This document shows, piece after piece, positions 11,120 through 52,041 of a stretch of DNA of 60,146 nt; within the stretch, counting starts at the first letter, position 1; each line of letters starts with the position of its first letter. The stretch is from an uncultured Bacilli bacterium. Lineage in GTDB: Bacteria > Bacillota_I > Bacilli_A > RF39 > UBA660. A program made the translations under genes and the position numbers. The stretch lies in contig CANRCZ010000004.1 in NCBI GenBank assembly GCA_947629265.1, positions 1 through 60,146 of the forward strand. Direction: 5' to 3'. The notes beneath the pieces were generated by a model. That model made no database searches and had not been told where the DNA came from. It worked only from the letters and a program-made list of their open reading frames with translations.

Positions 11120-11132
11120 AACAAATCACCTC

Positions 11133-12941: not shown

Positions 12942-12954
12942 AACAAATCACCTC

Positions 12955-14508: not shown

Positions 14509-14521
14509 AATTAATCATCTC

Positions 14522-17500: not shown

Positions 17501-17716
17501 GGTATTTTTATTGATTGCTGCTTTAGCTTGTTCATACCCTATTTGATATCTTAAATCATTATTTAAAGTATAAATTATTTTATCTTTATTAGTTGTCCAA
17601 AAACGATTAATTGAACTACCATCACTAAATTTAGTTAAAATATCATTAGATTTTGGGATATAACCATTATTTAATAGTTCGATATATTCAGCGATTCTAA
17701 TATGTATGTTTGACAT
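14522..17716 (-). CDS. Array paralog 3 (1064 aa): 11 repeats plus C-terminal module
   Basis: Eleven repeat cores. Repeats 10 and 11 are near-identical (KYKDEINHFSNGEAIN). The start codon lies inside the 3' end of paralog 2. Confidence 0.9.
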   Translation of the reverse strand: MSNIHIRIAEYIELLNNGYIPKSNDILTKFSDGSSINRFWTTNKDKIIYTLNNDLRYQIGYEQAKAAINKNTVRHKLQEFIELLNNGYIPTKLDYQTKFKNGESINFFWPNHKDKVINALNNDPNYQIGYEKAKEIISQLATKTSIEIKLSRRINEYIELLNHGYIPNSNENKVKFQNGDLINQFWQNQKERIITTLNNDPKYEVGYETAKDIINQLATKAPKEIKLSRQITEYIELINTGYIPKTQDNSISFSSGELINFFWRNHKGRVIATLNNDPKYQVGYEQAKEIIKKFEDKPRKMTAKKIKKENTRKIKLLNKIAEYIELLNTGYTPRHSDPITKFQDGKAINQFWFNHKDLIISILNSDLKYQTGYETAKETTTKLAKETPKQLEIKMKIYEYIELVNSGYIPKTYDNVTTFKNGSAINQFWINNKDKIIDKLNNDLKYQEGYDKVKKIINKLVNSPSNSDIYTQKISEYIELLNTGYTPLCDDTINEFKVGGFINHFWPTNKKRIIAILNSDPKYQVGYELAKETAKKYENRTPKEISLTERIEEYIDLVNVGYEPKIYDNTTKFKNGEVINKFWFNHKDQILSTLNSNLKYQVGYELAKETLSKLENQRPKETIIYEKVDEYINLLNHGYIPRYNDVRNRFSNGEAIGLFWKIHQDKIIATLNNNLKYVVGYEKAKKTITKLENKKLHKMTVLDKIKEYIELLNHGYIPKYKDEINHFSNGEAINSFWTCYKDRIIATLNSDLKYQIGYETAKENLTKIEKQKLEKLTILDKIKEYIDLLNTGYQPKYKDEINHFSNGEAINFFWMSYKTKIIDNLNNNLKYQEGYETAKKAIIIDKQMTKEINKQKENLTYTKVISKDQILKYLKIEDTNDDSIKSIIQNACFNEHVSMQSEQIKKAYCNTLDALDILDTLDENLIVDIMTCEIIKNHLEKEEREEFKKAVLSYLEKVKELQKLDVAFEENGQLKKLKIRKYKFDEYDIEECVLISLEFNQTKFIELATDLYNRRKLISSCIIDWNELTDLEKQTIINQNNLTVDEISLINEKQEEIKILKKMR

Positions 17717-19697
17717 AGTTATCTCCTCTTATTTGTTTTTTTAATGTTTTAATTTCTTCTTGTTTTTCATTAATTAATGATATTTCTTCTAAAGTAAAAT
17801 TGTTTTGTTTGATAATAGCTTCTTTTTCTTCAGTTGTAAATTCGTTCCAATCGATGATATAATTACTGATTAATTTTCTTCTATTATATAGATCGTTTTG
17901 TGGTTCAATTAGTTTAGATTGATTAAATTCTAAGTTTATTAAAACACATTCTTCAATATCAAATTTATTAAATTGATATTTTTTTATTTTGGCTACTCTT
18001 TTTTGATTGTCTTCTTCAAAGGCAATATCTAGTTTTTGTAGTTTTTTAACTTTTTCTAGATAGAATAAAATAGCCTTTTTAAATTCTTCACGTTCTTCTT
18101 TTTCTAAGTGATTTTCGATGATTGCATTTGTTATGATATCGATAATCATATTTTCATCTAAGATATCTAATTTATCTAGTTCGTTTAAAGCCTTATAGTA
18201 AGCTTTTTCTATTTGTTTATTTTGGTTACTAACATGGTTGTTAAAGCAGACACTTTGGATGATACTTTTTATTGAGCTATTATTTTTTTCATCTACTATT
18301 ATTCCTAAGTATTTTAAGATTTGATCTTTAGATATTTTAGGTTCATTAGTAGTATTATTTAAAATAGCTTTTTTAGCAGTTTCATAGCCTACTTGGTATT
18401 TAGGATCGTTATTTAATTTATCGATTACTTTATCTTTATGATTTGACCAAAATCTACTAATAGCCTCACCATTTTGAAACTTTGTCTTATAATCATTGTA
18501 TTTTGGCATATAGCCACAATTTAATAATTCGATATATTCGTCAACTTTTTTTAACGTTTTAATCTCGACTGACGTCTTAGTTGCAAGTTGACAAATAGTA
18601 TTTTTAGCTTTTTCATAACCTATTTGATATTTTGGATCATTATTTAAAGCTGTGATTACTTTATCTTTATGGTTTAACCAGAAAGTACCGATTAAATCAC
18701 CATTTTGAAATTTATTTTGATAATCTAGTTGAACTGGTATATAACCATTATTTAATAATTCGATATATTCTTGTAATTTATAGCTTACTATATTTTGGTT
18801 AATTACCTCTTTAGCGGTTTCATATCCTACTTGGTATTTGGGTTCGCTATTTAATTTACCGATTACTTTATCTTTATGATTAGCCCAGAATTTACCGATA
18901 AGCTCACCATTTTTAAACTTTATCTTATAATCATTATATTTTGGCATATAGCCACAATTTAATAACTCGATATATTCGTCAACTTTGTTTGAAATTTTAA
19001 TCTCGACTGACGTTTTAGTTGAAAGTTGTTTAATAGTATTTTTAGCTCTTTCATAACCTGTTTGATATCTAGGATCATTATTTAAAGTATCGATTATTTT
19101 ATTTTTATGACTATGCCAAAAAAGATTGATAACCTCACCATTTTGAAATTTAATTTGATTTTCATTAACTACTGGTATGTAACCATTATTTAGTAGCTCA
19201 ATGTATTCATCGATTTGCCTTAAAATTTGAATTTCTTTAGGTCGTTTAGTTGTTAATTTATTAATTATCTCTTTAGCTTGTTCATAACCTACTTGGTATT
19301 TAGAATCATTATTTAAGGTATCGATTATTTTATTTTTTTGATTTGACCAAAAATGATTGATATCTTCACCATTTGTAAATTTAGTTTCTGAATCACAAAT
19401 TTTTGGTAGGTAACCATTATTTAATAATTCGATATATTCATCTATCTGTTTTAAAAGTTTAAGATCTTTTGGTTTTTTAGTTTTTAATTTATTGATAGTA
19501 TCTTTAGCCTTTTCATAACCTACTTGGTATTTTGGATCACTATTTAAGGTATCGATTATTCTATTTTTTTGATTTGGCCAAAAATGATTGATACCCTCAC
19601 CAGTTGTAAATTTAATTTGGCTTTCATTAACTACTGGTATGTAACCATTATTTAGTAGTTCGATATATTCATCTATTTTAAGATATATATTTAACAT
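17697..19697 (-). CDS. Array paralog 2 (666 aa): 6 repeats plus C-terminal module with an 11-aa read-through tail
   Basis: Six repeat cores. The usual ..LKK-x-x-stop ending is replaced by LKKQIRGDNYVKHTY, which overlaps the Shine-Dalgarno and start codon of paralog 3. Confidence 0.9.
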   Translation of the reverse strand: MLNIYLKIDEYIELLNNGYIPVVNESQIKFTTGEGINHFWPNQKNRIIDTLNSDPKYQVGYEKAKDTINKLKTKKPKDLKLLKQIDEYIELLNNGYLPKICDSETKFTNGEDINHFWSNQKNKIIDTLNNDSKYQVGYEQAKEIINKLTTKRPKEIQILRQIDEYIELLNNGYIPVVNENQIKFQNGEVINLFWHSHKNKIIDTLNNDPRYQTGYERAKNTIKQLSTKTSVEIKISNKVDEYIELLNCGYMPKYNDYKIKFKNGELIGKFWANHKDKVIGKLNSEPKYQVGYETAKEVINQNIVSYKLQEYIELLNNGYIPVQLDYQNKFQNGDLIGTFWLNHKDKVITALNNDPKYQIGYEKAKNTICQLATKTSVEIKTLKKVDEYIELLNCGYMPKYNDYKTKFQNGEAISRFWSNHKDKVIDKLNNDPKYQVGYETAKKAILNNTTNEPKISKDQILKYLGIIVDEKNNSSIKSIIQSVCFNNHVSNQNKQIEKAYYKALNELDKLDILDENMIIDIITNAIIENHLEKEEREEFKKAILFYLEKVKKLQKLDIAFEEDNQKRVAKIKKYQFNKFDIEECVLINLEFNQSKLIEPQNDLYNRRKLISNYIIDWNEFTTEEKEAIIKQNNFTLEEISLINEKQEEIKTLKKQIRGDNYVKHTY

Positions 19698-19712
19698 AAT
19701 TATTCCCCCTTT

Positions 19713-21509
19713 TTATCTCATTTTTTTTAAGGTTTTAATTTCTTGTTGTTTTTCATTAATTAAGGCAATTTCTTCTAAAGTAAAGTTATTTTGTTTGATG
19801 ATAGCTTCTTTTTCTAAAGTAGTTAATTCGTTCCAATCGATGATACAGCTACTGATTAGTTTTCTTCTATTATATAAGTCAGTTTTTGGTTCGATAAGTT
19901 TAGATTGGTTAAATTCTAAGCTTATCAAAACACATTCTTCAATATCAAATTCATCAAATTGATATTTTCTAATTTTTTGTTTTTTAATATAGTTGTTATT
20001 TTCAAAAGCGATATCTAGTTTTTGTAGTTCTTTAACTTTTTGTAAGTATGCAAAAATAGCTTTTTTAAATTCTTCACGTTCTTCTTTTTCTAGACAGTTT
20101 TCAATAATTTCGTGAGTGATAATATCAGCGATTTTAGCTTCATCTAAAGTATCTAGTTTATCTAATTTTTTTAAGGTCTTACGATATGGTTCGTTCATCC
20201 ATTTATGTTGTTTACTGACATTTTGTTTAAAACATTCACCTTTAATAATACTTTTAATTGAATTATCGGTTTCTTTTTTTAGTTCGATACCTAAGTATTT
20301 TAAGATTTGATCTTTAGCGATCTTTTCTGTTTTATTAGTAGTTTTATATTCACCTTGTCTATTAGGTGAAATAGCCTCTTTAGCAGTTTCATAGCCTACT
20401 TGGTATTTTGGATCGTTATTTAATTTATCGATGATCTTATCTTTATTATTTCTCCAAAAATAATTGATAGCTTTACCATTTATAAGTTCAGTTTTAAAAT
20501 CAATACCTTTTATCATATAGCCATTATTTAATAGTTCGATATATTTTTCGATTTTAGCTTCTAATAAAATAGCATTCGCTTTTCTAGTTTTTAATTCTTC
20601 GATAATAGCTTTAGCTTTCTCATAACCTACTTGGTACTTTGGATCATTATCTAAAGCTATAATTACTCTATCTCTATGCGTTGTCCAAAAATAGCCTATA
20701 AAATCACCATTCGTAAACTTAGTTTCTAAATCACAATATTTTGGGATATAGCCATTATTTAATAGATTAATATAATCGTTTACTTTAGTTTCAAAGAAAA
20801 GGACACTCATATCTTTAGTTTTTAAGGTTTCTAAGGTTTCTTTAGCTTTATCATAACCTATCTTGTATTTAGGATTGCTATTAAATTCAGCGTATATTTT
20901 ATCCCTATTACGTTTTGACCAGAAAGTACTGATTAAATCACCATTTTTAAACTTGATATTTTGTTCTTTATATCTTGGTATATAACCTTGATTTAATAAC
21001 TCGATATATTCATCTACTTTTTGATCGAAGATTATATCTTTTACTTGTTTATCTTCTAATTGATTAATTATTTCTTTAGCGGTTTCATAACCTGTTTGAT
21101 ACTGTGGATCATTATCTAAAGCAGCGATTATCCTATCTTTTTGACTTGTCCAAAAATAATTGATAGTTTCACCAGTTGTAAATTTAGTTTCTAAATCACA
21201 ATGTTTTGGTAAGTAACCATTATTTAACAAATTAATATAATCTCTTACCTTAATTTCAAATAAAAGATTACTAGGTGTTTGTATTTTTAATTTTTCTAAG
21301 GTAGCTTTAGCTTGTTCATATCCTATCTTATATTTAGTATCACTATTAAATTTATCATATATTCTATCCTTATAATATGGCCAAAAGCGATTAATTGTCA
21401 CACCATTTGAAAATTTAGTTTTTGGATCATTTTTTTTAGGTATATAACCATTATTTAATAATTCAATATATTCATCCATTTCAACATCCGTCTTTTTCAT
21501 CTTTTCCAT
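19713..21509 (-). CDS. Array paralog 1 (598 aa): 5 repeats plus C-terminal module; first gene of the array
   Basis: Five repeat cores. AAGGGGG abuts the first ATG at 21509, so the ATG at 21500 (MKKTDVEMDEY...) may be the true start. Confidence 0.88.
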   Translation of the reverse strand: MEKMKKTDVEMDEYIELLNNGYIPKKNDPKTKFSNGVTINRFWPYYKDRIYDKFNSDTKYKIGYEQAKATLEKLKIQTPSNLLFEIKVRDYINLLNNGYLPKHCDLETKFTTGETINYFWTSQKDRIIAALDNDPQYQTGYETAKEIINQLEDKQVKDIIFDQKVDEYIELLNQGYIPRYKEQNIKFKNGDLISTFWSKRNRDKIYAEFNSNPKYKIGYDKAKETLETLKTKDMSVLFFETKVNDYINLLNNGYIPKYCDLETKFTNGDFIGYFWTTHRDRVIIALDNDPKYQVGYEKAKAIIEELKTRKANAILLEAKIEKYIELLNNGYMIKGIDFKTELINGKAINYFWRNNKDKIIDKLNNDPKYQVGYETAKEAISPNRQGEYKTTNKTEKIAKDQILKYLGIELKKETDNSIKSIIKGECFKQNVSKQHKWMNEPYRKTLKKLDKLDTLDEAKIADIITHEIIENCLEKEEREEFKKAIFAYLQKVKELQKLDIAFENNNYIKKQKIRKYQFDEFDIEECVLISLEFNQSKLIEPKTDLYNRRKLISSCIIDWNELTTLEKEAIIKQNNFTLEEIALINEKQQEIKTLKKMR

Positions 21510-29674: not shown

Positions 29675-32600
29675 TTAACCCTCGTATATTTCAGCACCTG
29701 TAGTAGCTTTATGCCATTTTTTACAATCTTCATAGAATTTTTTAAAATCATCAACTGTTAATTGCTTATCACTTTTTGATAAAAATTCAATTGGAGACTT
29801 AATTTCTGTTTTATTAACATTGTCAAACTTAACATTTATTTTGTTATCATTATATTGTGTTCCACTTGTTGCTGTAACGCTGAAATTTTGTGTTGTTTCC
29901 ATACTTACTAAGTATTTTTCTTCAGCATCTAATACTACTTTTAAAACGACGTTATTATTTTCAGTTGTTCCATCTTCTTGTTTTTCTTGAGTTTGGTCTT
30001 CTTTACCATAAACAGTTTCACTCATATAGGCATTATTTAACCAATTATTCAATTTATCTTTATTTAATGTTACGTTATATGTATGTTCTTCACCATCTAC
30101 TGGTTGAACTTTTTTAATAGCATTGATATCATCAGCGGTTGTTTGTTTCATAACATCTTGTAATAAAGATATTTCATGGTATCCTTTACTTACTTTTGTA
30201 AAGAAATTACCAAATTCCCAATCATTTATTTTAGCTCTACATACACCATTTTTACATTCTGATTGTTCTTTCGCTTTTCTTACTTGAATTATAATAGGAC
30301 CTTTATGTGATGTATCTACTGTATTATATTTGAATGTGTATTCAACGTCATCTTTACCATCGTTATAAAGGGTTAAGTCTTTTGCTTTATCGTATTTAAA
30401 AGTAAAATTTTCTACTCCACCTTTAATTTTATTATCCTTAGTAATAGTAAGACTATTAGCATCCTGTGTATTTTTAGATGCAGTATTTATTTTTTCTTCC
30501 AAAGTTGTAACGTCACTATAATCAATTTCATAAGTTTCTGGTTCGTAAGTTTCTTCTTCACCATCAACATCTAAATTAATAGTATATAATTTACCACGCT
30601 CACCAGTAATTTTACTTGATTTGATTGCTTCTAATGGTAAACTAATTGTTTGTGAACCATTAAAGCTATAACTAGTTGAATTATTATTTGGATCTATAAC
30701 ATTTACTGTTGTGTTGTTGTTAAATTTATTATCTGCAAAAGTTAATGTTACTGGTATTATGTACTTACCATCACCATTTTGTTCAGTTAAGGTACCTGAA
30801 ATTTCACCATTTTGTTCAGTTAAACCATTAGCACTTTGATAACTAATAGCTGCTGATGGTTTCTTTTTATAAGCTGCATAATATTTAGCATCTCCAGTTA
30901 GTGTTTCATTATCAAAATTTTCTACTTTTCTTTTAGTTGGAATAGTTCCTAATTTTTCATCTCCATTTGTTTCGGTTATATGCCATCCTTCAAATTCATA
31001 TTGATCCATTTCCTCTTTATGTTTTTCTTCTAAAGAGGTTCTGAATTCTTGAATTTCAGAGTTTGAGATTTTATCACCATGATGATAAAACTTAACTAAA
31101 GAAATAGCAGCTCCAGACTTGTCTCTATCAATTGGATCATGGAATGTTATCGTATAGAATTTTGCATGATGACCATCTTTATAATAACATTTGTCATATA
31201 ATACACCATGTTCATCATTTGTTGCATGCTTTCTAGCGATTGGATAATAGCGATCATTTGATGACATATTTTTAGATGTTACAATATTTTTAATTTCTTC
31301 TTTTGAATCTCTTAGAACTCTTATTGTAGGTACATCATAGTTTTCACTATCATTTTTTACATTAGATGCATTCAATGTTCCACCTGATATAATAATTCCT
31401 GCATTATATTCTTTCTCATCAGTTGTAAATTCTTCTGTTTCAATACCTGATACATCTATGTTATCAACAGTAACAGTTCCACTTTCAACCTTTAATTGAG
31501 ATTTAGTACCACCTGTTAATTTTAGGTTTTTGATAGTTACTGTTCCTGATTTAACATCAACAACATATTTCTTGTTCTCAGCTGTTAATTTTACTAAACT
31601 TTCACTATCACCGATAGAATTAATAGTTACATCCTTTTCGATACTTAAAGTATCACTTAAATTATAATCTCCATCTATATAGATAGTATTATAATCACTA
31701 GATAAAGCTGTATTAATATCTTTAACACCTAAGTCATCATCTTGGTCTACAACAACAAAATCAGAATTAAATGTAAAGTTATAAGTTTTATCTTCATCAC
31801 TACTAATTTCAGTTTCATCTGAATTAACTAATTTAATTGAATCGATTTTATTACCAATTTTTATTGAAAATGATTTCTTAGCATACGCTAATTGATCTAA
31901 AGTAGTGTTTTCTTCTTGATTTTCTAATTCGGCATCAAATGCATCCTTAGCACTTTTAACTATTTCTGCCTTTAAAGTTTTACCAGTGGCATCTAATAAA
32001 TCTCTATTGGAGCTATCAGTAAATTGTTTATCGCTATCATCTGTATATCCAATTGTATATTGTTTACTATGAGCACCAACTGTCAAAGTAATATCTTCTA
32101 TTTCATCTTTTTGTAAAACATATGCTATTGCACCTGGAATACTTGTATTTGCAAGTTCAGTTAAATTTATATTTGGAGCATCAGCATTGATTTTAATATT
32201 ATTATTGTTATCAGTATCTTGAGTTAGATGAAATTTATTATTAAAATTATTTGAATAAGTTGTATTATCACTATTTAAATCACTAATAACGTCTTCTACA
32301 AATTTATCTACGTTTAATGTATAATGAGCAATTAATTTTTTATCAGTATGAATATCAGTCAAACTTTCAACTTTATTAGATTCATCATACCAACCATCAA
32401 AAGTACGATATGCTTTTTCTTTTTCAGGGATTTCTATTGTTGGCAAGCTAGCAATATCATCACCTGTTCTAACATATTGTGTTTCTGGATTAGTTAGAGA
32501 ACCAGCATCAAATTCAATTGCCAAATCTTCTGTAATACCAACGTTATAAGTTACTGATTCTGCATCACTACCTAATAATTTAGCAACATCCTTTTTAGGA

Positions 32601-35600
32601 GTAATTGTTATAGCTAAACCATTATCAACGGCATGCCATTTTTGATATAAATCATCTAAAGTTTTATCTCCATTGTTTCCAGTTGTTACAGTATCAAGGA
32701 AATTCTTTAGTTCACTTTCAACTTGTGTTTTTATTTCACTTTCTGATTTATTAGAACTATTAGTAAATTCTTGTTCATTACTATCTAAACTTACTTTAAT
32801 ATTATCAATTTCACCAGAAGCTAGAGCATGAGCAATTGTTGATGCAATAGCTGTATCTGTTATTTCACTAATTTTTTTAGTTTTATTTAATATATCAAGT
32901 ACTAATTTGTTTTCACTTTCAGATACGAATTTAAATGTATCTTTTGCACTTTCTTTACCATTAATATGTGAAATAGCATCAGTAATATATTGATTTACAT
33001 CAATTTCCCAAATTGGATATAAAGTTATATCTTTAGTAATTTGTGTTTCACTTTTATTTTGTTCATCAAATTTAAATTCACTATCAGCTGTTTCGTCATC
33101 TATATTCCAATGACCAAATGTATTATATTGATGATCATCTTTGTCATCTTTTGCTTTAGTTGGATTTGCTGGTTTTACTAATTTTTCACCATCGTAGACA
33201 TAACTTTTAGTCTCTTTATCAGTTTTATAAGTTACAGTGTGTAAATCAACTAAATCAATATTATCATCATCATATTTTATATTATATTCTTTACTTTCAA
33301 GATAATTTTTCTTATCATCACCATCACTATCGATTTTAATTTTTAAATCTTTTGGCGATGATTTATCTTCTTTTGAAATGTGTTGTAAAATAGTTAAGAC
33401 TTTTTTATCTTCATCAAAATCATCATAATCAAATGTTTTTGTTATGCTATCACCAGTTGTTATTACGACTTTAACATCTTCTGTTACAACCTCTGGTTTA
33501 ATTGTAAAAGTATAGAAATATGAATCTAAATCTTTTGTTTCAAAACCGTCAGTTAATATTTGTTCTTTAATTGTTCCACTTAAGGTTTCAGTTTCAGCAT
33601 TATACACTAAATTTCCTTTGTTGTGTTCAGTATTATCTGAACTTAGTGTAATATCATCTGGAAATTTATATCCCCAGCTAATTATTTTATCCTTATCTGA
33701 TTTAGGAATATCACAAGTTGAACTACTAACAACGTTAATTGAAGCTGTTGTTTTTTCTTGTAATGTTAATTCACTCCAATCTACTGTTAATGTGTATGGA
33801 GCATATTCATCACCAGCTTCACCATCCATATCGACAACGACTGTAAATTTTTTATCGCTATCGTTATTATGTAAATGTTTTAACATGTATAATTTTTTAT
33901 TTTCATCAAAATTAGTAGCTGTTAAAGTTTTAGTTTCTTCACCATCAATTATTTGAACAGTTGTATCATTTGTTTTATCTGTTTCAGTAGTAATCGTAAA
34001 TGGTAAATAATAACCTGTTTTTCCTTCCTCGTCGAATGGAGCTTTTTCACTAGTCAATTCTACTATTGGAAGGAATTTTGATACTTTTACAGTTGTACCT
34101 TCTGTATTAAATTCAGCATTTAAATCACTTGGTTTAGTCCATCCATATGACTCATTTAAAGCTTTTGTAGCAGACTCATCAGCAGCTATAATATTTGATT
34201 TAGAACTTTTAACGAATTTTAACCCTGAATAATTGATTGTAATTTTTTCTGAAGGTAAATATTCTTTACCACTATCGCCATCCCAGTCGACAGTAATTTC
34301 TATTTTGCAAGTTTCATCTTTACATTGATTATCCAATTTGAATAAATTTGAATATACTCCATTAGCATCAAAATACTCTTTACCAAATGTTTTAGTTTCT
34401 TTTCCGGTTACTGTTACTTTAACACTATCTGGAACACTTTTTAATTCGGTTGGTTTCTTAAGATTGAATAAGAAATAATATCCATCTTCACCATTTTCAG
34501 CGAATACTTTAGCATTGGTATGTTGTAATTCAATTTTACCAGTTAAAGAATATGTACCATCTTCTTGTTTTTCTAGTTTATAATGTTTATTTTCTCCAGT
34601 TGGAATAGTATATCCCCAACTAGTTAATGTTGCTTTATTTTCACTAGAAACATCAGTATCAGCATCGGTTAATTCACCTTTAGAAGCAGTTTGAAATCTT
34701 AATCCACTTAAATCTAAAGTATAAGAGGTTGCTTCATATTCATCTAAACTACCATCTAAATCGACTGTTATAGTTATACGTGAATTAGCTTTCCAATCAT
34801 CGATATCTACTGGTACTAATACTACCTTACTAAAATCGCTAGTAGCTTTAGTAGCAATTAAATTAGTTCTATAATTAGCTATTTTAGCTGTAGCAGAATC
34901 AACTTTTATTCCAAAATCTTCCCAGTCAATAGTTCCATCAATTCCCATGCCAGAAACTTTAACTGTAGTTTTATCAGTTGCATTTGGAATATCTAAAGCA
35001 TATGCAAAGAAATATGGTGTATCATATTTAGCTTTATCTTCTGCGCTAAGTTTTAATTCTTCATTTTTTAATAGTAATCCACTTACTTTACCATCTGAAG
35101 AAATAGTTAATCCTTCTTCACCATATGCTTCTTCTGGAGTAAATCCTAAGTTATTACTATTTAATAATTGTTGATATGCCTCATTTTCTGCTAAATTTTG
35201 TTGTAATTTCAAATTTGATTTTTCAGCATAATGTGTATAATCGATATATCTAATATCAAATTTTTCACCTAATTGAACACTACCTACAGCATTTTTACCA
35301 TTTTTCCAACCTGTCACGTTAAATTTAGAATCATAAGTTGGTTCAACTAGTTGAATATTCATTTTTTTATAAAGTTCCTCTCGACTAATATCTTCATTAG
35401 CTTCAATACTACGAGAGGCAAACATTATATCTTCTTGTTTTAATTTATAAGTTGATGTAAAAGCATAATGCCCTATTACATAAATATAGTTTGTATCTGG
35501 TTTTAATTTTAAAGCTTCTTTTCCTAATTCATTTCTATCCATTTCTCTTGCGAAAACACCAGTTGTTGATAAAAAGAATGATAATAATGTAATCGCTATT

Positions 35601-35617
35601 AATTTATGTTTATTCAT
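29675..35617 (-). CDS. Giant secreted/surface repeat protein (1980 aa)
   Basis: Signal peptide MNKHKLIAITLLSFFLSTTGVFA. Five divergent modules of roughly 130 aa each end in (V/I)DxDG..(D/E)EY...Y.(I/L)(D/N)(Y/W)S. Three Listeria-Bacteroides-type repeats are present (TFGHWNIDD, RTFDGWYDE, YEFEGWHIT). Two helical modules are present. One segment looks like a beta-helix (VTIKNLKLTGG..VTVDNIDVSG). No LPXTG motif. Confidence 0.85.
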   Translation of the reverse strand: MNKHKLIAITLLSFFLSTTGVFAREMDRNELGKEALKLKPDTNYIYVIGHYAFTSTYKLKQEDIMFASRSIEANEDISREELYKKMNIQLVEPTYDSKFNVTGWKNGKNAVGSVQLGEKFDIRYIDYTHYAEKSNLKLQQNLAENEAYQQLLNSNNLGFTPEEAYGEEGLTISSDGKVSGLLLKNEELKLSAEDKAKYDTPYFFAYALDIPNATDKTTVKVSGMGIDGTIDWEDFGIKVDSATAKIANYRTNLIATKATSDFSKVVLVPVDIDDWKANSRITITVDLDGSLDEYEATSYTLDLSGLRFQTASKGELTDADTDVSSENKATLTSWGYTIPTGENKHYKLEKQEDGTYSLTGKIELQHTNAKVFAENGEDGYYFLFNLKKPTELKSVPDSVKVTVTGKETKTFGKEYFDANGVYSNLFKLDNQCKDETCKIEITVDWDGDSGKEYLPSEKITINYSGLKFVKSSKSNIIAADESATKALNESYGWTKPSDLNAEFNTEGTTVKVSKFLPIVELTSEKAPFDEEGKTGYYLPFTITTETDKTNDTTVQIIDGEETKTLTATNFDENKKLYMLKHLHNNDSDKKFTVVVDMDGEAGDEYAPYTLTVDWSELTLQEKTTASINVVSSSTCDIPKSDKDKIISWGYKFPDDITLSSDNTEHNKGNLVYNAETETLSGTIKEQILTDGFETKDLDSYFYTFTIKPEVVTEDVKVVITTGDSITKTFDYDDFDEDKKVLTILQHISKEDKSSPKDLKIKIDSDGDDKKNYLESKEYNIKYDDDNIDLVDLHTVTYKTDKETKSYVYDGEKLVKPANPTKAKDDKDDHQYNTFGHWNIDDETADSEFKFDEQNKSETQITKDITLYPIWEIDVNQYITDAISHINGKESAKDTFKFVSESENKLVLDILNKTKKISEITDTAIASTIAHALASGEIDNIKVSLDSNEQEFTNSSNKSESEIKTQVESELKNFLDTVTTGNNGDKTLDDLYQKWHAVDNGLAITITPKKDVAKLLGSDAESVTYNVGITEDLAIEFDAGSLTNPETQYVRTGDDIASLPTIEIPEKEKAYRTFDGWYDESNKVESLTDIHTDKKLIAHYTLNVDKFVEDVISDLNSDNTTYSNNFNNKFHLTQDTDNNNNIKINADAPNINLTELANTSIPGAIAYVLQKDEIEDITLTVGAHSKQYTIGYTDDSDKQFTDSSNRDLLDATGKTLKAEIVKSAKDAFDAELENQEENTTLDQLAYAKKSFSIKIGNKIDSIKLVNSDETEISSDEDKTYNFTFNSDFVVVDQDDDLGVKDINTALSSDYNTIYIDGDYNLSDTLSIEKDVTINSIGDSESLVKLTAENKKYVVDVKSGTVTIKNLKLTGGTKSQLKVESGTVTVDNIDVSGIETEEFTTDEKEYNAGIIISGGTLNASNVKNDSENYDVPTIRVLRDSKEEIKNIVTSKNMSSNDRYYPIARKHATNDEHGVLYDKCYYKDGHHAKFYTITFHDPIDRDKSGAAISLVKFYHHGDKISNSEIQEFRTSLEEKHKEEMDQYEFEGWHITETNGDEKLGTIPTKRKVENFDNETLTGDAKYYAAYKKKPSAAISYQSANGLTEQNGEISGTLTEQNGDGKYIIPVTLTFADNKFNNNTTVNVIDPNNNSTSYSFNGSQTISLPLEAIKSSKITGERGKLYTINLDVDGEEETYEPETYEIDYSDVTTLEEKINTASKNTQDANSLTITKDNKIKGGVENFTFKYDKAKDLTLYNDGKDDVEYTFKYNTVDTSHKGPIIIQVRKAKEQSECKNGVCRAKINDWEFGNFFTKVSKGYHEISLLQDVMKQTTADDINAIKKVQPVDGEEHTYNVTLNKDKLNNWLNNAYMSETVYGKEDQTQEKQEDGTTENNNVVLKVVLDAEEKYLVSMETTQNFSVTATSGTQYNDNKINVKFDNVNKTEIKSPIEFLSKSDKQLTVDDFKKFYEDCKKWHKATTGAEIYEG

Positions 35618-35633: not shown

Positions 35634-36992
35634 CTAATTTATTTTTACAATAAGATTTTTCTTTTCACCATTTGATAATGTAATGGTTGCTGAATTTTGA
35701 CCTTTACTAACATGGCCAGCAGCTACAGTTGGGTTAGATGTAACTTTTCTATAACCATGACCATTTATTTCAAATCCTGCATAATCAGTAAATGCATTTC
35801 CGTTTTTAGTTACAGTAAACGTATACTGATATACTGTTCCTTCTACACCTTCAACTGGTATAGCTTTTAAAGTTAATTGATATCTTGATTTTACAGTAAC
35901 TTTGTAAGTTGCTGTTTTTCCGTTTGATGTCATTGCTGTTATAGTAATTTCACCATCTTTAACACCTGTTACTTTACCATTTTTATCAACAGTTGCAATA
36001 CTTGTATTACTACTTTTCCAAGTAACCGTTTTATTAGTTGTATTGCTTGGTGATACAGTTGCTGATAATTTAATACTTTCCTTTACATAAACCTCTTGTG
36101 GACCAGTTATTTTAACGCTTGTTGCCTCTACTACTTTCTTACTACTTGATGGTTTAGTATTTTTACTTGTACTGCTTTTCTTTGCTGTTGTAGATTTAGC
36201 TTTTACGGTAATTTTCTTTGTTGCTGTTTTTCCATTTGCTGTTTTAGCTGTTATAGTTACTGTTCCTTCTTTTTTACCAGTTACTGAACCATTATTTACA
36301 GTAGCAATTTTTTCATTACTACTAGACCAAGTTATTTCACTTATAGTAGCATTTTTAGGATTAAATGTTACTCCTAATTTTATACTGCTTCCTACGCTTA
36401 CTGAGCTAGATCCCGTAATTTTAATGCTTTCAATATCAACTTGTTCTGTTGTTACAGTTATATTACAAGTTGCACTGTGTTTTTCATCCTTTGATTTTAC
36501 AGTTACTGTTGCAGTACCCTCTTTTATAGCTTTCAAATTACCTTTATCTCCAACGGTAACAACGCTCTCATCACTTGATGAATACACTAAATCTTCTTCG
36601 GTTAATCCATCTGGTAATGAAATAATTTCAAGTTTCTTTTCATTACCTACTAACATGTTTAGCTCTGTATCAGCTAATTGTATACCAACGTCATTCCAAT
36701 GAGCCTTTAAGGTAATATCTTTTTTAATTTTAGTAGCAAAATCAAATTCTTCATTTTCATAATACCATCCATCAAAGATATACCCATCTTTAGTTGGATC
36801 AGTTGGTTTTTTTACTGTTTGATTAGCTTTAACTTTTACATCTTCTACTTTTGTACCACCATCTGAATTAAATTTAACAGTATAAGTTTTGTTTTTACAT
36901 CCTGTTAATGGCACAAGCATTATAGTCATAACTGCTAAAGCTATCAAAGTAGATAATTTCATCTTGTTTGTTTTTAATGTCATTCCTTTCAT
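35634..36992 (-). CDS. Lipoprotein with a Listeria-Bacteroides repeat and three Big_2-like Ig domains
   Basis: Lipobox LTGC. Motif DGYIFDGWYYENEEFDF. Three repeats of the S(S)S(N/D)..(I/V)ATV...G.VT..K.G..T(I/V)T pattern. The GAGGAG Shine-Dalgarno lies 7 nt upstream. Confidence 0.85.
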   Translation of the reverse strand: MKGMTLKTNKMKLSTLIALAVMTIMLVPLTGCKNKTYTVKFNSDGGTKVEDVKVKANQTVKKPTDPTKDGYIFDGWYYENEEFDFATKIKKDITLKAHWNDVGIQLADTELNMLVGNEKKLEIISLPDGLTEEDLVYSSSDESVVTVGDKGNLKAIKEGTATVTVKSKDEKHSATCNITVTTEQVDIESIKITGSSSVSVGSSIKLGVTFNPKNATISEITWSSSNEKIATVNNGSVTGKKEGTVTITAKTANGKTATKKITVKAKSTTAKKSSTSKNTKPSSSKKVVEATSVKITGPQEVYVKESIKLSATVSPSNTTNKTVTWKSSNTSIATVDKNGKVTGVKDGEITITAMTSNGKTATYKVTVKSRYQLTLKAIPVEGVEGTVYQYTFTVTKNGNAFTDYAGFEINGHGYRKVTSNPTVAAGHVSKGQNSATITLSNGEKKNLIVKIN

Positions 36993-37762: not shown

Positions 37763-39052
37763 TCAATTTAACTTTTTTTCTATTTTTTCCATTCCACCCA
37801 TATAAGGTTGTAAAACCTTTGGTATATTGATAGAACCATCACTTTGATAGTGTTGTTCGATAATTGCGATAATGGCTCTAGGTGAAGCGATTACTGTATT
37901 GTTTAAAGTTGCGACGAACATATTTCCATTTTCAGTTTTCATTCTGATACCTAATCTTCTAGCTTGGGCATCACCTAAAGTAGAACAAGAACCCACCTCA
38001 AAATATTTTTGTTGTCTTGGACTCCATGCTTCAACGTCACAAGACTTAACTTTAAGATCTGCTAAATCACCACTACAACACTCCAAAGTTCTAACAGCAA
38101 TATCCATGCTTCTAAAAAACTCTACTGTATAACTCCACATTTTGTTATACCATTCCATAGCCTCTTCTGGTTTACAAAGAACAACCATTTCTTGTTTTTC
38201 AAATTGATGAACACGGTATAGTCCTCTTTCCTCTAAACCATGAGCTCCAACCTCTTTTCTAAAACAAGGTGAATAAGAGGTCATCGCTATTGGTAGTTCT
38301 TTTTCATCGATAAGTTGTCCTTTAAATTTACCGATCATAGAGTGTTCTGATGTACCGATTAAATATAGATCTTCGTTTTCTATTTTATACATCATATTTT
38401 CCATTTCAGCGAAAGACATAACGCCAGTAACGACGTCGCTTCTAATCATAAATGGTGGAATACAATAAGTAAAACCTTTACTTATCATAAAGTCACGAGC
38501 ATAGGCAATAACAGCTTCATGTAATCTAGCGATATCACCTATTAAATAGTAAAAACCATTACCACTAGTTCTACCAGAACTTTCTTTATCTAAACCACCT
38601 AAATCTTCACATATATCAGCATGATATGGTATTTCATAATCAGGTACAAATGGTTCACCAAATTTTTCAATTTCGACATTTTCACTATCATCTTTACCAA
38701 TAGGTACTGAGTCATCGATCATTTGAGGAATGACCATCATTTTTTCTTGTAATTTTTCTTTTAACTTTGCTTCTTCTTTTTCGATATCAGTAAGCTTATT
38801 ATTAATATCTACAACTTGTTGTTTTTTAGTATTCGCTTCTTCAACTTGTTTATTTTTAAACAAAACACCAATCTCATCACTGATATTGTTTCTTTCTTTT
38901 CTTAGATTGTCACCATCAACTTTTAATTTTCTAATTTTTTCATCTAATTCAACTACCTCATCGACAAGTGGTAACTTTTCATCTTGAAATTTCTTTTTAA
39001 TATTTTCTTTAACTTTTTCTTTGTTTTCTCTAACAAATTTAATATCTAACAT
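37763..39052 (-). CDS. serS: Seryl-tRNA synthetase
   Basis: MLDIKFVRENKE N-terminal coiled coil. Class II motifs are present (FRKEVGAHG, YRVHQFEKQE, GSCSTLGDAQARR). The AAGAGGGA Shine-Dalgarno precedes the ATG at 39052. Confidence 0.92.
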   Translation of the reverse strand: MLDIKFVRENKEKVKENIKKKFQDEKLPLVDEVVELDEKIRKLKVDGDNLRKERNNISDEIGVLFKNKQVEEANTKKQQVVDINNKLTDIEKEEAKLKEKLQEKMMVIPQMIDDSVPIGKDDSENVEIEKFGEPFVPDYEIPYHADICEDLGGLDKESSGRTSGNGFYYLIGDIARLHEAVIAYARDFMISKGFTYCIPPFMIRSDVVTGVMSFAEMENMMYKIENEDLYLIGTSEHSMIGKFKGQLIDEKELPIAMTSYSPCFRKEVGAHGLEERGLYRVHQFEKQEMVVLCKPEEAMEWYNKMWSYTVEFFRSMDIAVRTLECCSGDLADLKVKSCDVEAWSPRQQKYFEVGSCSTLGDAQARRLGIRMKTENGNMFVATLNNTVIASPRAIIAIIEQHYQSDGSINIPKVLQPYMGGMEKIEKKLN

Positions 39053-39099
39053 TTTATCCCTCTTTCTTATTGTTTTAATACCCATTAATAACAAAAAAA

Positions 39100-39286
39100 G
39101 ACCACATATAGGAGTGTATATGACACGGTACCATCCTATTTTGTGTCTTAATTTTGATAACGGTATTACCGGAAATGTTTACATTTCACTTAGAAGTAGA
39201 TTCATAAAAGTTTATGATTAGTTTACACCAGCCACTAACTCTCTATACATAAGGTCTTTTATTACTATTCTTCGTCACAGTTTTAT
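39100..39286 (-). promoter_or_regulatory. T-box leader (Ser specifier UCU) upstream of serS
   Basis: On the minus strand: GA motif GTGACGAAGAATAGTA, then ATAGAGAG, then TGGTGTAAA. The specifier context UAUGAA-UCU-A places TCT at 39198-39200. The T-box sequence AATAGGATGGTACCGTG is at 39124-39140. A terminator hairpin and T-run end near 39100. Confidence 0.85.
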
Positions 39287-39292
39287 AAGTTA

Positions 39293-46719: not shown

Positions 46720-46744
46720 GAAAAAGTAGATAAATTTATCTACT
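46720..46744 (-). terminator. leuS terminator (perfect 20-nt palindrome AGTAGATAAATTTATCTACT) overlapping the stop codon
   Basis: The minus-strand hairpin is followed by TTTTT. Confidence 0.7.
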
Positions 46745-49523
46745 TTACAACAATATTAACTAATTTATTAGGTACGACTATCTCTTTTACAATATCTTTA
46801 CCATCAATATACGCTTTAACATTATCCAACGTTTTAGATATTGCTAACATATCCTCTTTAGTCGTATCACTTGATACCTCTATCTTACCTCTTACCTTAC
46901 CATTAACTTGAACGACCATTTCAAAGACCTCTTCACTTATTTTGCTATCATCATAAGTTGGCCAAGGTTCATTAGCGATCGTCTTATCGTGACCTAGTAT
47001 ACTCCATAACTCTTCAGTTATAAAAGGAGCGACAGGATTTAATAATTTAATAAAGTTAGTTGCATAAACAGTTGGTACAAATTCTTCCTTATAACAAGCA
47101 TTGATAAATATCATCATCTGACTAATAGCGGTATTAAAGTTCAATGTTTCATAATCTTCCGTTACCTTTTTAACTGTTTGATTGTAAACTTTATCTAAGT
47201 TCTTATTTTCTTTATCTAAAAGATTACCTTCTGTAAATAGACGATATACTCTATCTAAGAATCTTCTAGCTCCCTCGACACCACTATCACTCCATGCTTT
47301 ATCAGCTGCTAATGGCCCCATAAACATTTCATAAAGTCTTAATGTATCAGCGCCATACTTTTTAACAATATCGTTAGGGTTAACGGCATATTCAGGATAT
47401 CTTTTACCCATTTTAATACCATTAGAACCTAGTATCATACCCTGATGAACTAGTTTTTTAAATGGTTCTTTATAAGGAACGATACCTTTATCATAAAGAT
47501 AATTATTCCACATTCTAGAATATAATAAATGTCCAACAGCATGTTCTGGCCCACCAACATATAAATCCACTGGCATCCAATGCTCTAACAATTTTTTATC
47601 TGCTAATTCTTTATCGTTATCTGGATCGATATATCTTAAGAAATACCAAGATGATCCAGCACTACCAGGCATCGTTGAGGTTTCTCTTTTACCCTTTTGA
47701 CCATCGATTTCAACATTTAACCAATCGACAGCTTTTTCTAGTGGTGATGCTCCAGTTTTAGATGGACTATAATCTTCTAGTTCTGGTAAAACAAGTGGTA
47801 GTTCACTATCTTTTAAAGTTACTTTGCTACCATCTTCTAAATGAACAATTGGAATTGGTTCACCCCAATATCTTTGACGAGCGAATATCCAATCTCTAAT
47901 ACGGTAGTTAATTTGTTTTTTACCGATATTATTTTCTTCTAACCAACTAATCATTTTATTGATAGCATCTTCTTTATTTAACCCATCTAAATATTCAGAG
48001 TTGATATGAATACCATCATTTTCCATAGCACCTCTATTTAAAACGTAGTCAAAAGATTTTAAATGTAGTTCATCCACTATTTCTGATAAGATAGTATCTT
48101 TACTAACCCATTCACATGGTAATGAACCATTTTCTTTTTTATCACTTTTTAATTTGAATAATAATGGAGTACTATCGGTAACATAGTTTTGATTATCACA
48201 AGTATAATGATGATGAATTTTAAATCCCTCGTATACTGGTTCGATATCAGTATATCCAGTTTTTTCTTTAATTTCACGAATAGCACAGTTGATAGCACTT
48301 TCATCATCATTTCTAGTACCACCGATAAATAATCTACCATCACAATTGATAGTTAAGTATTTGTCATTTGCTTCATCATAGACAACTGCTACAATGCTAT
48401 CTTTATGAATTTCATTTTCATGTTCATTTCCTGTAACCTCTTCTAATACTTGAATGATTGGAAGATCGAACTTTTTCGCGAATTCATAATCTCTTTCATC
48501 GTGAGCTGGTACAGCCATAATAGCTCCTGTTCCATATGATACTAATACGTAATCGGATATCCAAATTGGTATTTTAGTTTGATTGACAGGATTTATAGCA
48601 TAAGCTCCAGTAAAGACACCTGTTTTTTCTTTATTTAATTCGGTTCTTTCAATATCTGATTTAGTTGCACATAGATTGATATAATCTTCAACCTCTTGTT
48701 TCTTATCTTCGGTTGTTATCTTTTTAACTAGTTCATGTTCAGGAGCTAAAACACAGTAAGTAGCGCCAAATAAGGTATCACATCTTGTTGTAAAGACAGT
48801 AAATGATTCATCCATACCATCGATTTTAAATTCAACTTGAGCTCCAATACTTTTACCGATCCAGTTTCTTTGAATTTCTTTAGTTGATTCTGGCCAATCG
48901 ATATCGTTTAAACCATCAAGTAACCTTTCAGCATAAGCTGGTATATCGATAACCCATTGTTTCATATTTTTTCTAATAACAGGATAGCCACCACGTTCAC
49001 TTTTACCATCGATTATTTCATCGTTTGATAAAACGGTTCCTAATTCTTCACACCAATTAACTGGCATATCGACATATTTGGCTAAACCATCTTCATATAG
49101 TCTTTTAAAAATCCACTGTGTCCATTTATAGTATTTAGGATCACAAGTTGATACCTCTCTATTCCAATCATATGTTAAACCTAATGATTTTAATTGTTCT
49201 CTAAAGGTTTTAATATTATTTTCTGTAAAACCGGCTGGATGGTTACCTGTTTTAATAGCATATTGTTCAGCTGGTAGACCAAATGAGTCAAAACCCATTG
49301 GATGTAAAACATTATAACCTTGCATTCTTTTCATTCTAGATACGATATCTGTAGCGGTATAACCCTCAGGATGACCAGCATGTAATCCGACACCTGATGG
49401 ATATGGAAACATATCTAAGGCATAAAATTTTGGTTTAGAAAAATCCCAAATGTCAGTTTTGAACGTTTCATTTTCTTCCCAGTACTTTCTCCATTTTTTT
49501 TCAATTTCTTCATGATTATACAT
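46740..49523 (-). CDS. leuS: Leucyl-tRNA synthetase carrying a roughly 135-aa Nudix-box insertion
   Basis: HIGH-type motif [10 protein letters not shown]1 editing-domain motifs ([25 protein letters not shown]) and KMSKS-type KMGKR. At 927 aa it is clearly longer than Bacillus LeuRS as I recall it (roughly 800 aa, from memory, not checked). The extra segment is aa 361-498. Confidence 0.93.
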
Positions 49524-49545: not shown

Positions 49546-49735
49546 AATAAAAAAGTCCCTATGGTGTAGGAGCGTCATAACGCGGTACCATCCTACTTTA
49601 ATAGAAACTATCCTCTTTTTCTTAACGCGAATAAACGAATAAACTCCAAAGCAAGTTCATAATCGCTGACTAAAATGTTTGCACCATCCACATCTTCTCT
49701 ATATAGTCATAAATTATTACTACTCTTTTTCAACG
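49546..49735 (-). promoter_or_regulatory. T-box leader (Leu specifier CUU) upstream of leuS
   Basis: On the minus strand: GTTGAAAAAGAGTAGTA, then ATAGAGAAG, then TGGTGCAAA. The specifier context UAUGAA-CUU-G places CTT at 49653-49655. The T-box sequence AGTAGGATGGTACCGCG is followed by a T-run near 49549. Confidence 0.85.
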
Positions 49736-49738
49736 TTT

Positions 49739-50788
49739 TTAAAATACTCTTTTTCTTAAGAATGGTGGTAAGTCATCATCGCTATCATCATCGATTGATG
49801 ACATACTACTACCAACCTCTACTTTTTCTTTTTTATCATCATCGAAACCAGTTGCGATTACAGTTACGATAATAGCATCATCTAAGTTTTCGTTGATTAC
49901 AGCTCCAAAGATAGTGTTGATATCTGTGTTAGCTGATGAACGAATGATTTCAGCGGCTTCTTCAACCTCAAATAATGTTAAATTAGCGCCACCAGTTACG
50001 TTTATAATAGCATCGGTTGCTCCACTTATACTAGCTTCTAGCAATGGACTAGTTACTGCTTCTCTAGCTGCTTCTTTAGCGCGATCAGCTCCTGTTCCCA
50101 TACCAATACCTATTAAAGCGCTTCCTCTATTTTTCATAACGGTTTTTACATCAGCGAAATCCAAGTTGATTAATCCTGCTACCGCTATCAAATCGGATAT
50201 AGATTGAACACCTCTTCTTAAGACGTTATCAACCTCTTTAAATGAATCGATAAGTGATGTTGATTTATCGATAATCTCTCTTAATCTATCGTTTGGTATA
50301 ACGATTAGAGTATCAACATGTTTTTTTAACTCTTGTAATCCCTCTAGGGCTTGACTCATACGTCTACTACCCTCAAATGAGAAAGGTTTTGTAACGATAC
50401 CTACGGTTAAGGCTCCAAGTTCTTGAGCGATATCGGCAACGACTGGTGCTGCTCCGGTTCCAGTTCCACCACCCATACCACAAGTGATGAAGATCATGTC
50501 GGCACCCTCTAGGGCTGATTTTAATTCTTCTTTACTTTCAAGGGCTGCTTCTCTACCAATTTTTGGATCAGCTCCTGCCCCAAGGCCATTTGTCAAATCC
50601 ATACCTATTTGAATTTTCACATCGGCTTTTGATTTATCCAATACTTGATAATCTGTATTAGCTGCTATAAATTCAACGCCTTTAATACCTGCTTCAACCA
50701 TACGATTTACAGCATTGTTACCAGCGCCTCCAACCCCAATTACCTTTATTTTTGCTAATTGATCCATTTCTAAACCAAACATATTCAT
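49739..50788 (-). CDS. ftsZ: Cell division protein FtsZ
   Basis: [13 protein letters not shown], the tubulin signature [10 protein letters not shown], and the C-terminal peptide [10 protein letters not shown]. Confidence 0.97.
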
Positions 50789-50799
50789 ATTTTTCCTCC

Positions 50800-52041
50800 T
50801 TAATCATTGAAGAAGTAACCAAACACCTTCCCCAGCATCGACTCATTTCCGATATTTAAAATACCTTTATGATTAGGTGATAGATCGATATTATCATCTT
50901 CACTAATCATTGTATAGTCTTGTCCTTTTAGTTTCAATTTATTTATAAAATAAACAATATTTCCTACTGCTGATGAATACTTATTATGTCTAACGCCTAG
51001 TATTTTAATGTTACCTACTGATGCAACATTTCCTAGTATTTCATTCAAGGTTAGATTAAAATTGCTGACGCTACTTGTACCACCAGTTATTATTATATAA
51101 TTAACTTCACTTTTTGTCAAAGCATTTATCTCTTTTCTGATTAAAACTAGCATTTGTTCTATTCTTGAAGCTACGACCTCGGTAACCTCTAGGTTATTAA
51201 TTCTAATGCTTTTGCCCATTTGATTAGTTGTTTCAAAGTAATCATTGCTATTAGCGTGTTTTTTGTTTGCTAAAGCAAATTTTTCTTTAATTTTAACGGC
51301 TTCTTTGTTATCAACTTTGTATATGTAGGCGATATCGTTATCGATATTCTTACCACCGATACCTAAAACGGAACTTTTATAGATTATTCCTTTATTGTAA
51401 AGTGATATACTAGTTGTCTCATAACCGATATTAACAACCGCTCCTACTTTAGAAGAGTTATCTTTATTTTTAAAGGCGTAATAGTCACCTAAGCTATTAA
51501 GTGATATATCGACGACCTCTAAACCTAGGCTATCTAGCAAATTGATAACGGAATAGACACTTTTTTTCAAGGTTGAAACGATGACAGTTCTAATTTTTAA
51601 GTCTTTTCCTTCTAACATTTTAGGATCTCTTATACCTTTATTACCATCAAGTTCAAAATCGATTGGTACGATGGTTACGATTTCGTTATCTTTTTGAATG
51701 TTATTTTCAGCACTAAGTCTAAGTAATCTAGCGACATCTTCATCGGTTACGACACCATCGACCTCGATTTGGGCTGTACCTATTTTAAAATCGACATAGT
51801 AACTTGGCACTGATGCTATAACTTTGGTTATTTTAATACCTAGCATCTGTTCTATTTCGGTCAGTCCTTGTTTTATTGATTTACCAGCTAGTTCGATATC
51901 AGTTATCAATCCCTTTTTTATTCCTTTTGATTTGACTGATGAAGCTGCAAGTAGATTAAGTTTATTATGAAATAATTCACATACAACTATTTTAATGGTA
52001 TCTGAACCAATATCTATGCTTGTATATACATGTTTCACCAA
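50800..52041 (-). CDS. ftsA: Cell division protein FtsA
   Basis: Actin-like fold motifs ([33 protein letters not shown]). It lies immediately upstream of ftsZ. Confidence 0.92.

Follow-up and report, generated by a model that had tools for sequence, protein, structure and literature searches.

The leuS gene of the DNA analysed here, a stretch of 60,146 nucleotides from an uncultured Bacilli bacterium (GenBank assembly GCA_947629265.1, contig CANRCZ010000004.1, positions 1 to 60,146 of the forward strand; called the window below), encodes a leucyl-tRNA synthetase (LeuRS) that contains a second enzyme fold. We found a Nudix-fold domain lying in-frame within the CP1 editing domain of this otherwise intact synthetase. 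The combined architecture is inherited, and uncultured gut Bacilli keep it across more than 130 species. Judged from sequence comparison, we regard it as fairly probable that the Nudix domain embedded in this housekeeping enzyme is active in the family and survives in the window as a dead remnant. Gene, domain and motif all lie on the minus strand:

46740..49523, minus strand: leuS coding sequence, 927 aa plus stop codon, from the open reading frame (ORF) list; matched by TIGR00396, best PDB matches are LeuRS (E=4e-222).
48030..48443, minus strand: Nudix-fold domain, aa 361-498, in the I4b loop of CP1, identified by Pfam, AlphaFold, Foldseek and an alignment of 80 relatives.
48252..48320, minus strand: Nudix box, aa 402-424, recognised by motif match.

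Aligned to the LeuRS of T. thermophilus (1h3n), window residues 2-362 correspond to residues 4-364 and window residues 499-699 to residues 376-579, with about 136 window residues standing at a spot that holds 11 in the T. thermophilus enzyme. The CP1 domain of S. pneumoniae (4k47) has 5 residues at this site. An earlier reading of the window, made from its letters alone (the sequence-only reading), had put the gap at about 10 residues in Bacillus-type enzymes and delimited some 135 extra residues, aa 361-498 of 927. Both statements were right, and 48030..48443 is exactly aa 361-498. The motifs PAHDxRD and xNSxxLxG are spaced by 30-33 residues in 110 of the 120 LeuRS fragments that are closest and have no insert. 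A search for mobile-element signatures revealed no flanking repeats around the insert, the base composition shows no break across it, and the window proteins include no further copy of its Nudix subfamily besides leuS.

The box of the insert fits the consensus GX5EX7REUXEEXGU at all positions bar K421, where the segment reads REIKEKTGY. The string that had been matched by hand to the Nudix box, with Lys for the second Glu, was indeed found at aa 402-424, with K421 as its sole mismatch. Profile searches bore out the Nudix identity and not the alternative of another fold: against Pfam NUDIX (PF00293) the insert scored 25.1 bits (E=1.9e-5) and the whole protein 21.6 bits, above its gathering score of 21.1. 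All 81 family members matched the model, the best at 8e-17. An AlphaFold prediction of the insert from its single sequence was unusable, with a predicted local distance difference test score (pLDDT) of 38, and was replaced by a run on an alignment of 51 database relatives. This run gave a pLDDT of 91.5 and a predicted TM-score (pTM) of 0.85, with the strand-helix order typical of Nudix proteins. When the model was compared with the PDB using Foldseek, 532 Nudix chains were recovered at E<=1e-3, with TM values up to 0.75-0.80. The best 50 listed were all Nudix, and the best matches include Aquifex Ap4A hydrolase, mycobacterial MutT1, E. coli RppH and an E. faecalis MutT/Nudix protein. Model and structural matches support the Nudix fold that had been suspected from the letters.

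Among known Nudix enzymes, the profile of the 81-member family found its best PDB sequence match in the yeast Dcp2 catalytic domain (E=2e-8, positions 19-137 of 149). Of the NCBIfam models, NudB and YtkD (BsRppH) were weakly matched by all 81 members and RppH by 59 of them, the best E-values being 1.2e-8 for YtkD and 3.3e-8 for RppH. The window insert itself reached 17.3 bits and thereby stays below the curated cut-off of 154.4 (RppH/YtkD equivalogs). All family members have a Tyr 16 residues past the box, which the window retains as Y440; as a single residue it is weak evidence. An X-loop Tyr about 16-18 residues downstream of the Nudix box marks the subgroup of diadenosine polyphosphate (ApnA) hydrolases and RppH (Dunn, 1999, as cited in PMC5389931). 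By fold and profile, the insert is a Nudix domain of a distinct subfamily that leans mildly to the RNA-end/ApnA group.

In the CP1 domain of S. pneumoniae LeuRS (SpLeuRS), Hu et al. described an 'I4b insertion', a long loop that joins alpha2 and alpha3 and is unconserved among bacteria; Thr373 of this loop adjoins the ligand in the editing pocket, and the counterpart of this insertion in eukaryal and archaeal LeuRS, I4ae, lies over the opening of the pocket (PMC3747510). We transferred the SpLeuRS numbering via the conserved Asp344 and Asp347 and found that the Nudix domain splits the I4b loop exactly, with Thr373 aligning with window E501, three residues past the insert. Since the domain interrupts this loop and the Thr373 equivalent follows at such a short distance, the alignment places its anchor on the edge of the pocket that takes up the tRNA 3' end. 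The insert linker residues E1, T4 and G5 are invariant in the family.

For LeuRS queries the protein database returned fragments only, of at most 515 aa and often from frameshifted long-read contigs, which under-represent the family. We therefore determined the distribution of the insert by scanning genomes, one for each GTDB species. The insert is encoded in 133 species genomes, all of uncultured gut Bacilli, under the record labels 'uncultured Bacilli', 'Tenericutes', Clostridium sp. CAG:433, CAG:451, CAG:417 and Candidatus Faecimonas. It lies within an unbroken LeuRS frame at 80/80 loci retained, 76 of them full length (about 936-943 aa) and 4 cut by contig ends. The insert measures 148-151 aa in every relative and 138 aa in the window only. 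The insert is clade-specific, since LeuRS fragments that are 70-76% identical over the junction, some of them labelled Acholeplasmatales or Erysipelotrichaceae, do not have it. Bacilli-type LeuRS contigs were also found in metagenome-assembled genomes labelled 'uncultured Muribaculaceae' (L012, CAYTKH010000003.1; L053; L062; L073), records that are probably mis-binned or mislabelled.

Conservation within the family points to a functional enzyme. The box residues G, E, R, E, E, E, G and Y are each kept in 79-81 of the 81 aligned sequences, and the complete Nudix box motif is present in 79/80 relatives. An acidic loop, L-D-[DE]-D-E, occurs in 79-80 of the 80 relatives and aligns by profile with the region around Dcp2 E198. 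Outside the window's own lineage the mean pairwise identity is 68% for the insert versus 62% for the LeuRS core, and the ratio of nonsynonymous to synonymous substitution rates (dN/dS) of the insert is 0.03-0.3 in unsaturated relative pairs. Because the box and the acidic loop are conserved and the insert is under purifying selection, the domain is probably an active, Mg-dependent Nudix pyrophosphohydrolase in the family.

Two changes in the window copy fall on this conserved catalytic apparatus:

48261..48263, minus strand: codon AAA, K421, replacing the second Glu of the REUXEE pair.
48120..48125, minus strand: junction S467/L468, at which the acidic loop L-D-[DE]-D-E-x is deleted, as judged from the alignment to relatives.

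The position equivalent to 421 is E in 79 of the 80 relatives, A in one and K in the window only. The EE pair of the family profile aligns with Dcp2 E152-E153, which makes K421 the equivalent of E153. In yeast Dcp2, E153 acts as general base and E198 binds Mg, and the exchanges E153Q and E198Q essentially eliminate decapping (PMC6300357). The window alone is without the acidic loop, and it has two smaller deletions at aa 394/395 and aa 446/447; all three are in frame and in predicted loops. Furthermore, the Trp of INW, near-invariant in the family, is a Cys in the window, and the Tyr residues at +17 and +19 after the box are lost. G402, E408, R416, E417, E420, H438, H439 and Y440 are kept. Compared with its nearest relative, L012, the window enzyme is 87% identical in the core and 64.5% in the insert. 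Distances to 42 outgroups are equal for the two cores (0.471 for the window, 0.471 for L012) but differ for the inserts (0.403 for the window versus 0.331 for L012), and the ratio of nonsynonymous rates (dN) between insert and core is 3.3. Since K421 replaces the E153 equivalent, the loop with the E198 equivalent is deleted and the insert has diverged roughly three times as fast as the remaining enzyme, the window Nudix copy is most likely catalytically dead, and still constrained enough to fold. The exchange of Glu for Lys had been taken for a minor deviation in the sequence-only reading, a view that did not stand up to its conservation in 79/80 relatives, its correspondence to Dcp2 E153 and the loss of the acidic loop.

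The synthetase around the insert retains the elements of a bacterial LeuRS:

49565..49742, minus strand: T-box leader upstream of leuS (Rfam RF00230, 110.9 bits, gathering score 93).
49371..49382, minus strand: HIGH-type motif HAGH, aa 48-51; HAGH or HVGH in all relatives.
48444..48869, minus strand: CP1 editing domain before the insert, aa 219-360 (PF13603; aligns to 4k47 and 1h3n).
48774..48791, minus strand: T-rich editing motif TTRCDT, aa 245-250, by motif reading.
48489..48503, minus strand: HDERD, aa 341-345, by alignment to 4k47.
47913..48029, minus strand: CP1 editing domain after the insert, about aa 499-537, by alignment to 4k47.
47400..47414, minus strand: KMSKS-loop variant KMGKR, aa 704-708, by motif reading.
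46854..47201, minus strand: anticodon-binding domain, aa 775-890 (Pfam PF08264, E=3.5e-24).

The whole window protein scored 1047.1 bits against TIGR00396 (leuS_bact) and thus passed the curated cut-off of 548.4. Pfam recognised the class I core, the LeuRS editing domain and the anticodon-binding domain, the editing domain (PF13603) being matched over aa 219-370, profile positions 1-150 of 185, at E=2.5e-66. The editing motifs TTRCDT, GTG and HDERD are all intact, and D345 corresponds to SpLeuRS D347, the editing Asp that is conserved universally (alignment to 4k47; roles from PMC3747510). KMGKR keeps the first two residues and the second Lys of KMSKS. HAGH, TTRCDT, HDERD and KMGKR are all present, in agreement with the sequence-only reading. 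Both aminoacylation and editing by the window LeuRS itself appear intact. In TTRCDT a Cys (Ala in some relatives) stands where Pro is usual, which is true for most of the Nudix-bearing clade. KMGKR is followed by YPEY in a loop one residue longer than usual, a feature of the window and a subclade of Nudix-bearing LeuRSs (e.g. L012, L014, L016); the remaining ones have KMSKS.

The T-box leader has a probable CUU (Leu) specifier, read from the alignment as GAA-CUU-G. T-box control is typical of Firmicutes, and the window gene is a housekeeping, tRNALeu-sensing leuS under such control. Leucylation of tRNALeu by the window enzyme is indirectly supported by the T-box with its probable CUU specifier. 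In the window, leuS stands after ftsA-ftsZ (49739..52041). At another locus (L090:5001-8153) a stand-alone homologue of the insert, P0023 (30% identity), lies directly downstream of ftsA-ftsZ, in the place that leuS takes in the window; the shared position is possibly a coincidence.

The same Nudix subfamily also occurs in synthetases of candidate phyla radiation (CPR) bacteria. An exhaustive profile search for the insert subfamily yielded 125 cluster representatives at E<1e-30. LeuRS proteins or fragments account for 42 of the 146 newly listed best representatives (150 listed in all), and among the matches listed there were no other host proteins bar tandem-Nudix proteins and one LeuRS-CP1 fragment (P0143). 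The CPR LeuRSs in these matches, such as HSX17785.1 (Saccharimonadales) and MCK5490653.1 (Paceibacterota), carry one to three Nudix domains, at I4b, before CP1 (there also in tandem) or near aa 610. The proteins and representatives concerned are P0072, P0073, P0075, P0079, P0082, P0087, P0207/P0220 and P0140. In the second tandem copies the first box Glu and the Arg are often changed to Q and A. A neighbour-joining tree of 96 Nudix domains did not settle whether insertions at different LeuRS sites were independent. A Ham1/ITPase domain occurs in one family of these LeuRSs: it is present in P0207/P0220, and MCK5490653.1 (1330 aa) has one at residues 984-1167, downstream of the KMSKS region. P0140 has an N-terminal serine-hydrolase fusion. 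Stand-alone homologues of the insert, 160-217 aa long and generically annotated, are 30-35% identical across the whole insert, including its N-terminal PHENE/PYFEDE strand. A further candidate, P0041 on L084, had the appearance of a LeuRS with a Nudix domain in place of CP1 and was set aside because its CP1 segment lies on the opposite strand. On this 1064-bp metagenome contig (22.6% GC), LeuRS residues 161-206 are followed by a same-strand Nudix ORF, with CP1 aa 208-354 on the other strand, probably a chimeric assembly and otherwise an unusual rearrangement.

In canonical members of the family, the embedded domain would perform an Mg-dependent cleavage of a pyrophosphate linkage near the place where the tRNA acceptor end enters CP1. 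Candidate substrates are a dinucleoside polyphosphate, another nucleoside-diphosphate-X compound (NDP-X) or a phosphorylated or capped RNA end. The X-loop Tyr at +16 would fit the NDP-X/ApnA option, and the co-insertion of Ham1 in CPR LeuRS may point to free nucleotides; the affinities to Dcp2, RppH and YtkD, together with the siting at the acceptor-end entrance, would suit a tRNA end. The Ap4A-clearing and sensor roles proposed in the sequence-only reading are speculative. Pre-transfer editing of the aminoacyl-adenylate by the Nudix domain was rejected as unlikely on chemical grounds, as an acyl-AMP is without a pyrophosphate bond. Aminoacyl-adenylates are acyl-phosphate anhydrides of a nucleoside monophosphate; counting them among nucleoside-diphosphate-X compounds, as had been done at the outset, assigned them to the wrong substrate class. 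The window copy would probably have been retained because it still folds within an essential protein, and it may possibly still bind something.

A more ambitious proposal, which we put forward tentatively and regard as rather doubtful, is that the canonical Nudix domain forms a third catalytic centre of LeuRS, acting in cis with CP1 to trim tRNALeu ends or to destroy dinucleotides. Trimming would concern an abnormal tRNALeu end, namely a 5'-triphosphate, an NAD or Np4A cap, or a 3'-pyrophosphate adduct; destruction would remove adenylate-derived dinucleoside polyphosphates at source. Such a centre would have arisen in gut Bacilli and in CPR bacteria by repeated acquisition, with a secondary loss in the window's lineage. 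If this is true, a new type of repair, of RNA or of nucleotides, would reside in a synthetase.

Several observations weigh against the account of an active family domain and a dead window copy. The high pLDDT was driven by the alignment of relatives and is no proof that the shortened window version folds equally well. Foldseek singled out no one Nudix subfamily in the PDB, and the NCBIfam scores for RppH, YtkD and NudB are all far under the curated cut-offs. A conserved neighbourhood with leuS was sought for the stand-alone homologues (a 'Rosetta-stone' test) and was not found. The apparent dN/dS of the window insert against L012 is about 0.18, below 1 with dS saturated, and indicates that some constraint is left. 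Non-canonical boxes are tolerated in some Nudix proteins, and hence K421 is no proof of inactivity.

On a rival view, in the spirit of the sequence-only reading, K421 is tolerated or compensated, and the window Nudix is still active and removes dinucleotides of the Ap4A type or other NDP-X by-products of the synthetase. The window keeps the fold and most of the box (G402, E408, R416, E417, E420), and also H438, H439 and Y440, the last being a Tyr at the ApnA-associated X-loop position (PMC5389931). The better structural matches in Foldseek include Aquifex Ap4A hydrolase and Thermus Ap6A hydrolase, and the insert has a dN/dS below 1. However, the replaced Glu is E in 79/80 relatives and corresponds to Dcp2 E153, mutation of which abolishes activity, the acidic loop of 79-80/80 relatives is deleted, and the faster evolution of the insert is specific to the window lineage. 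To our knowledge there is no evidence for LeuRS as a major Ap4A producer. We consider continued activity in the window unlikely. Still less likely, in our judgement, is a family-wide non-catalytic module that binds nucleotides or tRNA and tunes CP1 editing or domain movements. It would suit the site at the rim of the editing pocket, the I4ae insertion of eukaryal and archaeal LeuRS that covers the pocket opening (PMC3747510), the frequent Q and A for the first box Glu and Arg in second tandem CPR copies, and the persistence of the window copy minus its catalytic residues. Conservation of all catalytic box residues and of the acidic loop over about 80 species is, however, hard to explain without catalysis.

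A serious rival, with a modest chance of being right, is that an ordinary house-cleaning Nudix domain became lodged in an insertion-tolerant loop of a protein that is abundant and essential, and that it works or decays independently of LeuRS function, the association being historical and not mechanistic. Such a passenger would be at home in I4b, which is variable in length and unconserved among bacteria (PMC3747510). CPR LeuRSs hold Nudix domains at several sites, plus Ham1/ITPase (P0207/P0220) and a serine hydrolase (P0140), LeuRS relatives that are 70-76% identical in the region manage without the insert, the stand-alone homologues are unlinked to leuS, and the window lineage is apparently letting the domain decay. 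A mere lodger is harder to reconcile with a subfamily that is embedded in LeuRS only, 42 times in the best 150 representatives and at recurring sites flanking CP1, with an insert better conserved than the LeuRS core in gut Bacilli outside the window's lineage, and with the invariant linker residues E1, T4 and G5. As to an assembly chimera or a sequencing artefact, nothing but E421K is conceivable as an error, a single base (GAA to AAA) inside an A-run. The in-frame architecture is identical at 80/80 independent genome loci from many studies, base composition is continuous, flanking repeats are absent, and the three deletions are in frame and in predicted loops. The taxonomic survey, with 133 species encoding the insert, effectively refutes the chimera that the sequence-only reading had allowed for, and an artefact of either kind has a negligible chance.

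Compared with known LeuRSs of the Bacillus/Streptococcus type (TIGR00396; 1H3N, 4K47), the window enzyme has the same Rossmann core with HIGH motif, CP1, KMSKS-type loop and anticodon-binding domain. It differs in the roughly 136 extra residues that form a Nudix domain in I4b, where the references have 5-11, and in having KMGKR for KMSKS and TTRCDT for TTRPDT. With Dcp2 (2JVB/4K6E), E. coli RppH (4S2X), B. subtilis YtkD/BsRppH and the Aquifex Ap4A hydrolase (3I7U), the insert shares the alpha/beta/alpha fold and, in the relatives, the canonical box, an acidic loop that aligns with the Dcp2 E198 loop, and the Tyr at about +16. Unlike these RNA-end and ApnA enzymes, it is nested within the domain of another enzyme and is neither free-standing nor a terminal fusion. 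In contrast to Dcp2, the window copy is without the E153 and E198 equivalents, and a Box A/B or a regulatory domain is not evident. The CPR LeuRSs (HSX17785.1, MCK5490653.1) share this Nudix subfamily with the window (profile E<1e-30) and often have it at I4b too, but their host lineage differs, with about 48% identity to the window in one direct comparison (noisy locus L083), and they have 1-3 copies, also before CP1 and near aa 610, some with Ham1/ITPase. Their annotation is automatic throughout, and a study of them was not found in the literature. Like I4ae of eukaryal and archaeal LeuRS, the insert is a lineage-specific addition to CP1; I4ae, however, is a helix and no enzyme domain. The IleRS with a GNAT domain (NCBIfam NF040702) likewise carries an extra enzyme domain on a class Ia synthetase and has a curated model, whereas NCBIfam offers none comparable for LeuRS with Nudix.

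In public records the Nudix-bearing LeuRSs are annotated as leucine-tRNA ligase only. Full-text literature searches turned up no description of a Nudix domain in LeuRS or in another synthetase, in line with what the sequence-only reading had supposed, and the words 'tRNA' and 'synthetase' are absent from a 2017 survey of the Nudix clan (PMC5389931). A LeuRS with a nested Nudix domain is apparently an undescribed design. Synthetases are among the best-studied enzymes, and domains accreted to them have repeatedly revealed new biology. Should the Nudix domain work on the tRNA acceptor end or on nucleotides derived from adenylates, aminoacylation would gain a new step of quality control; were it a mere passenger, LeuRS would still offer a clear natural case of an essential enzyme with one domain nested in another. 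The window copy could serve as a natural 'catalytic-dead' comparison, that is, as an inactive control. The I4b loop shapes the binding of benzoxaborole LeuRS inhibitors, and the insert may alter the drug sensitivity of these gut bacteria.

Elsewhere in the window, a second T-box leader (39107..39287, minus strand, 103 bits) lies upstream of a seryl-tRNA synthetase gene (37763..39094, minus strand). Nine tandem, co-directional, paralogous ORFs of 355-1064 aa, 50-65% mutually identical, occupy 5316..21509 (minus strand). They consist of one to about nine N-terminal modules of ~77 aa (roughly KIDEYIELLNNGYIPK..TKF.NG..IN.FW..NK..II..LN.D.KY.VGYE.AK) and a shared C-terminal part of ~350 aa. No convincing Pfam family was found in the six of the nine that were scanned, and these ORFs are an expanded, unexplained gene family. 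An ORF of 1980 aa at 29675..35617 (minus strand) has an N-terminus resembling a signal peptide and matched nothing in Pfam; after it, at 35634..36992, comes a Big_2/Listeria-Bacteroides-repeat protein.

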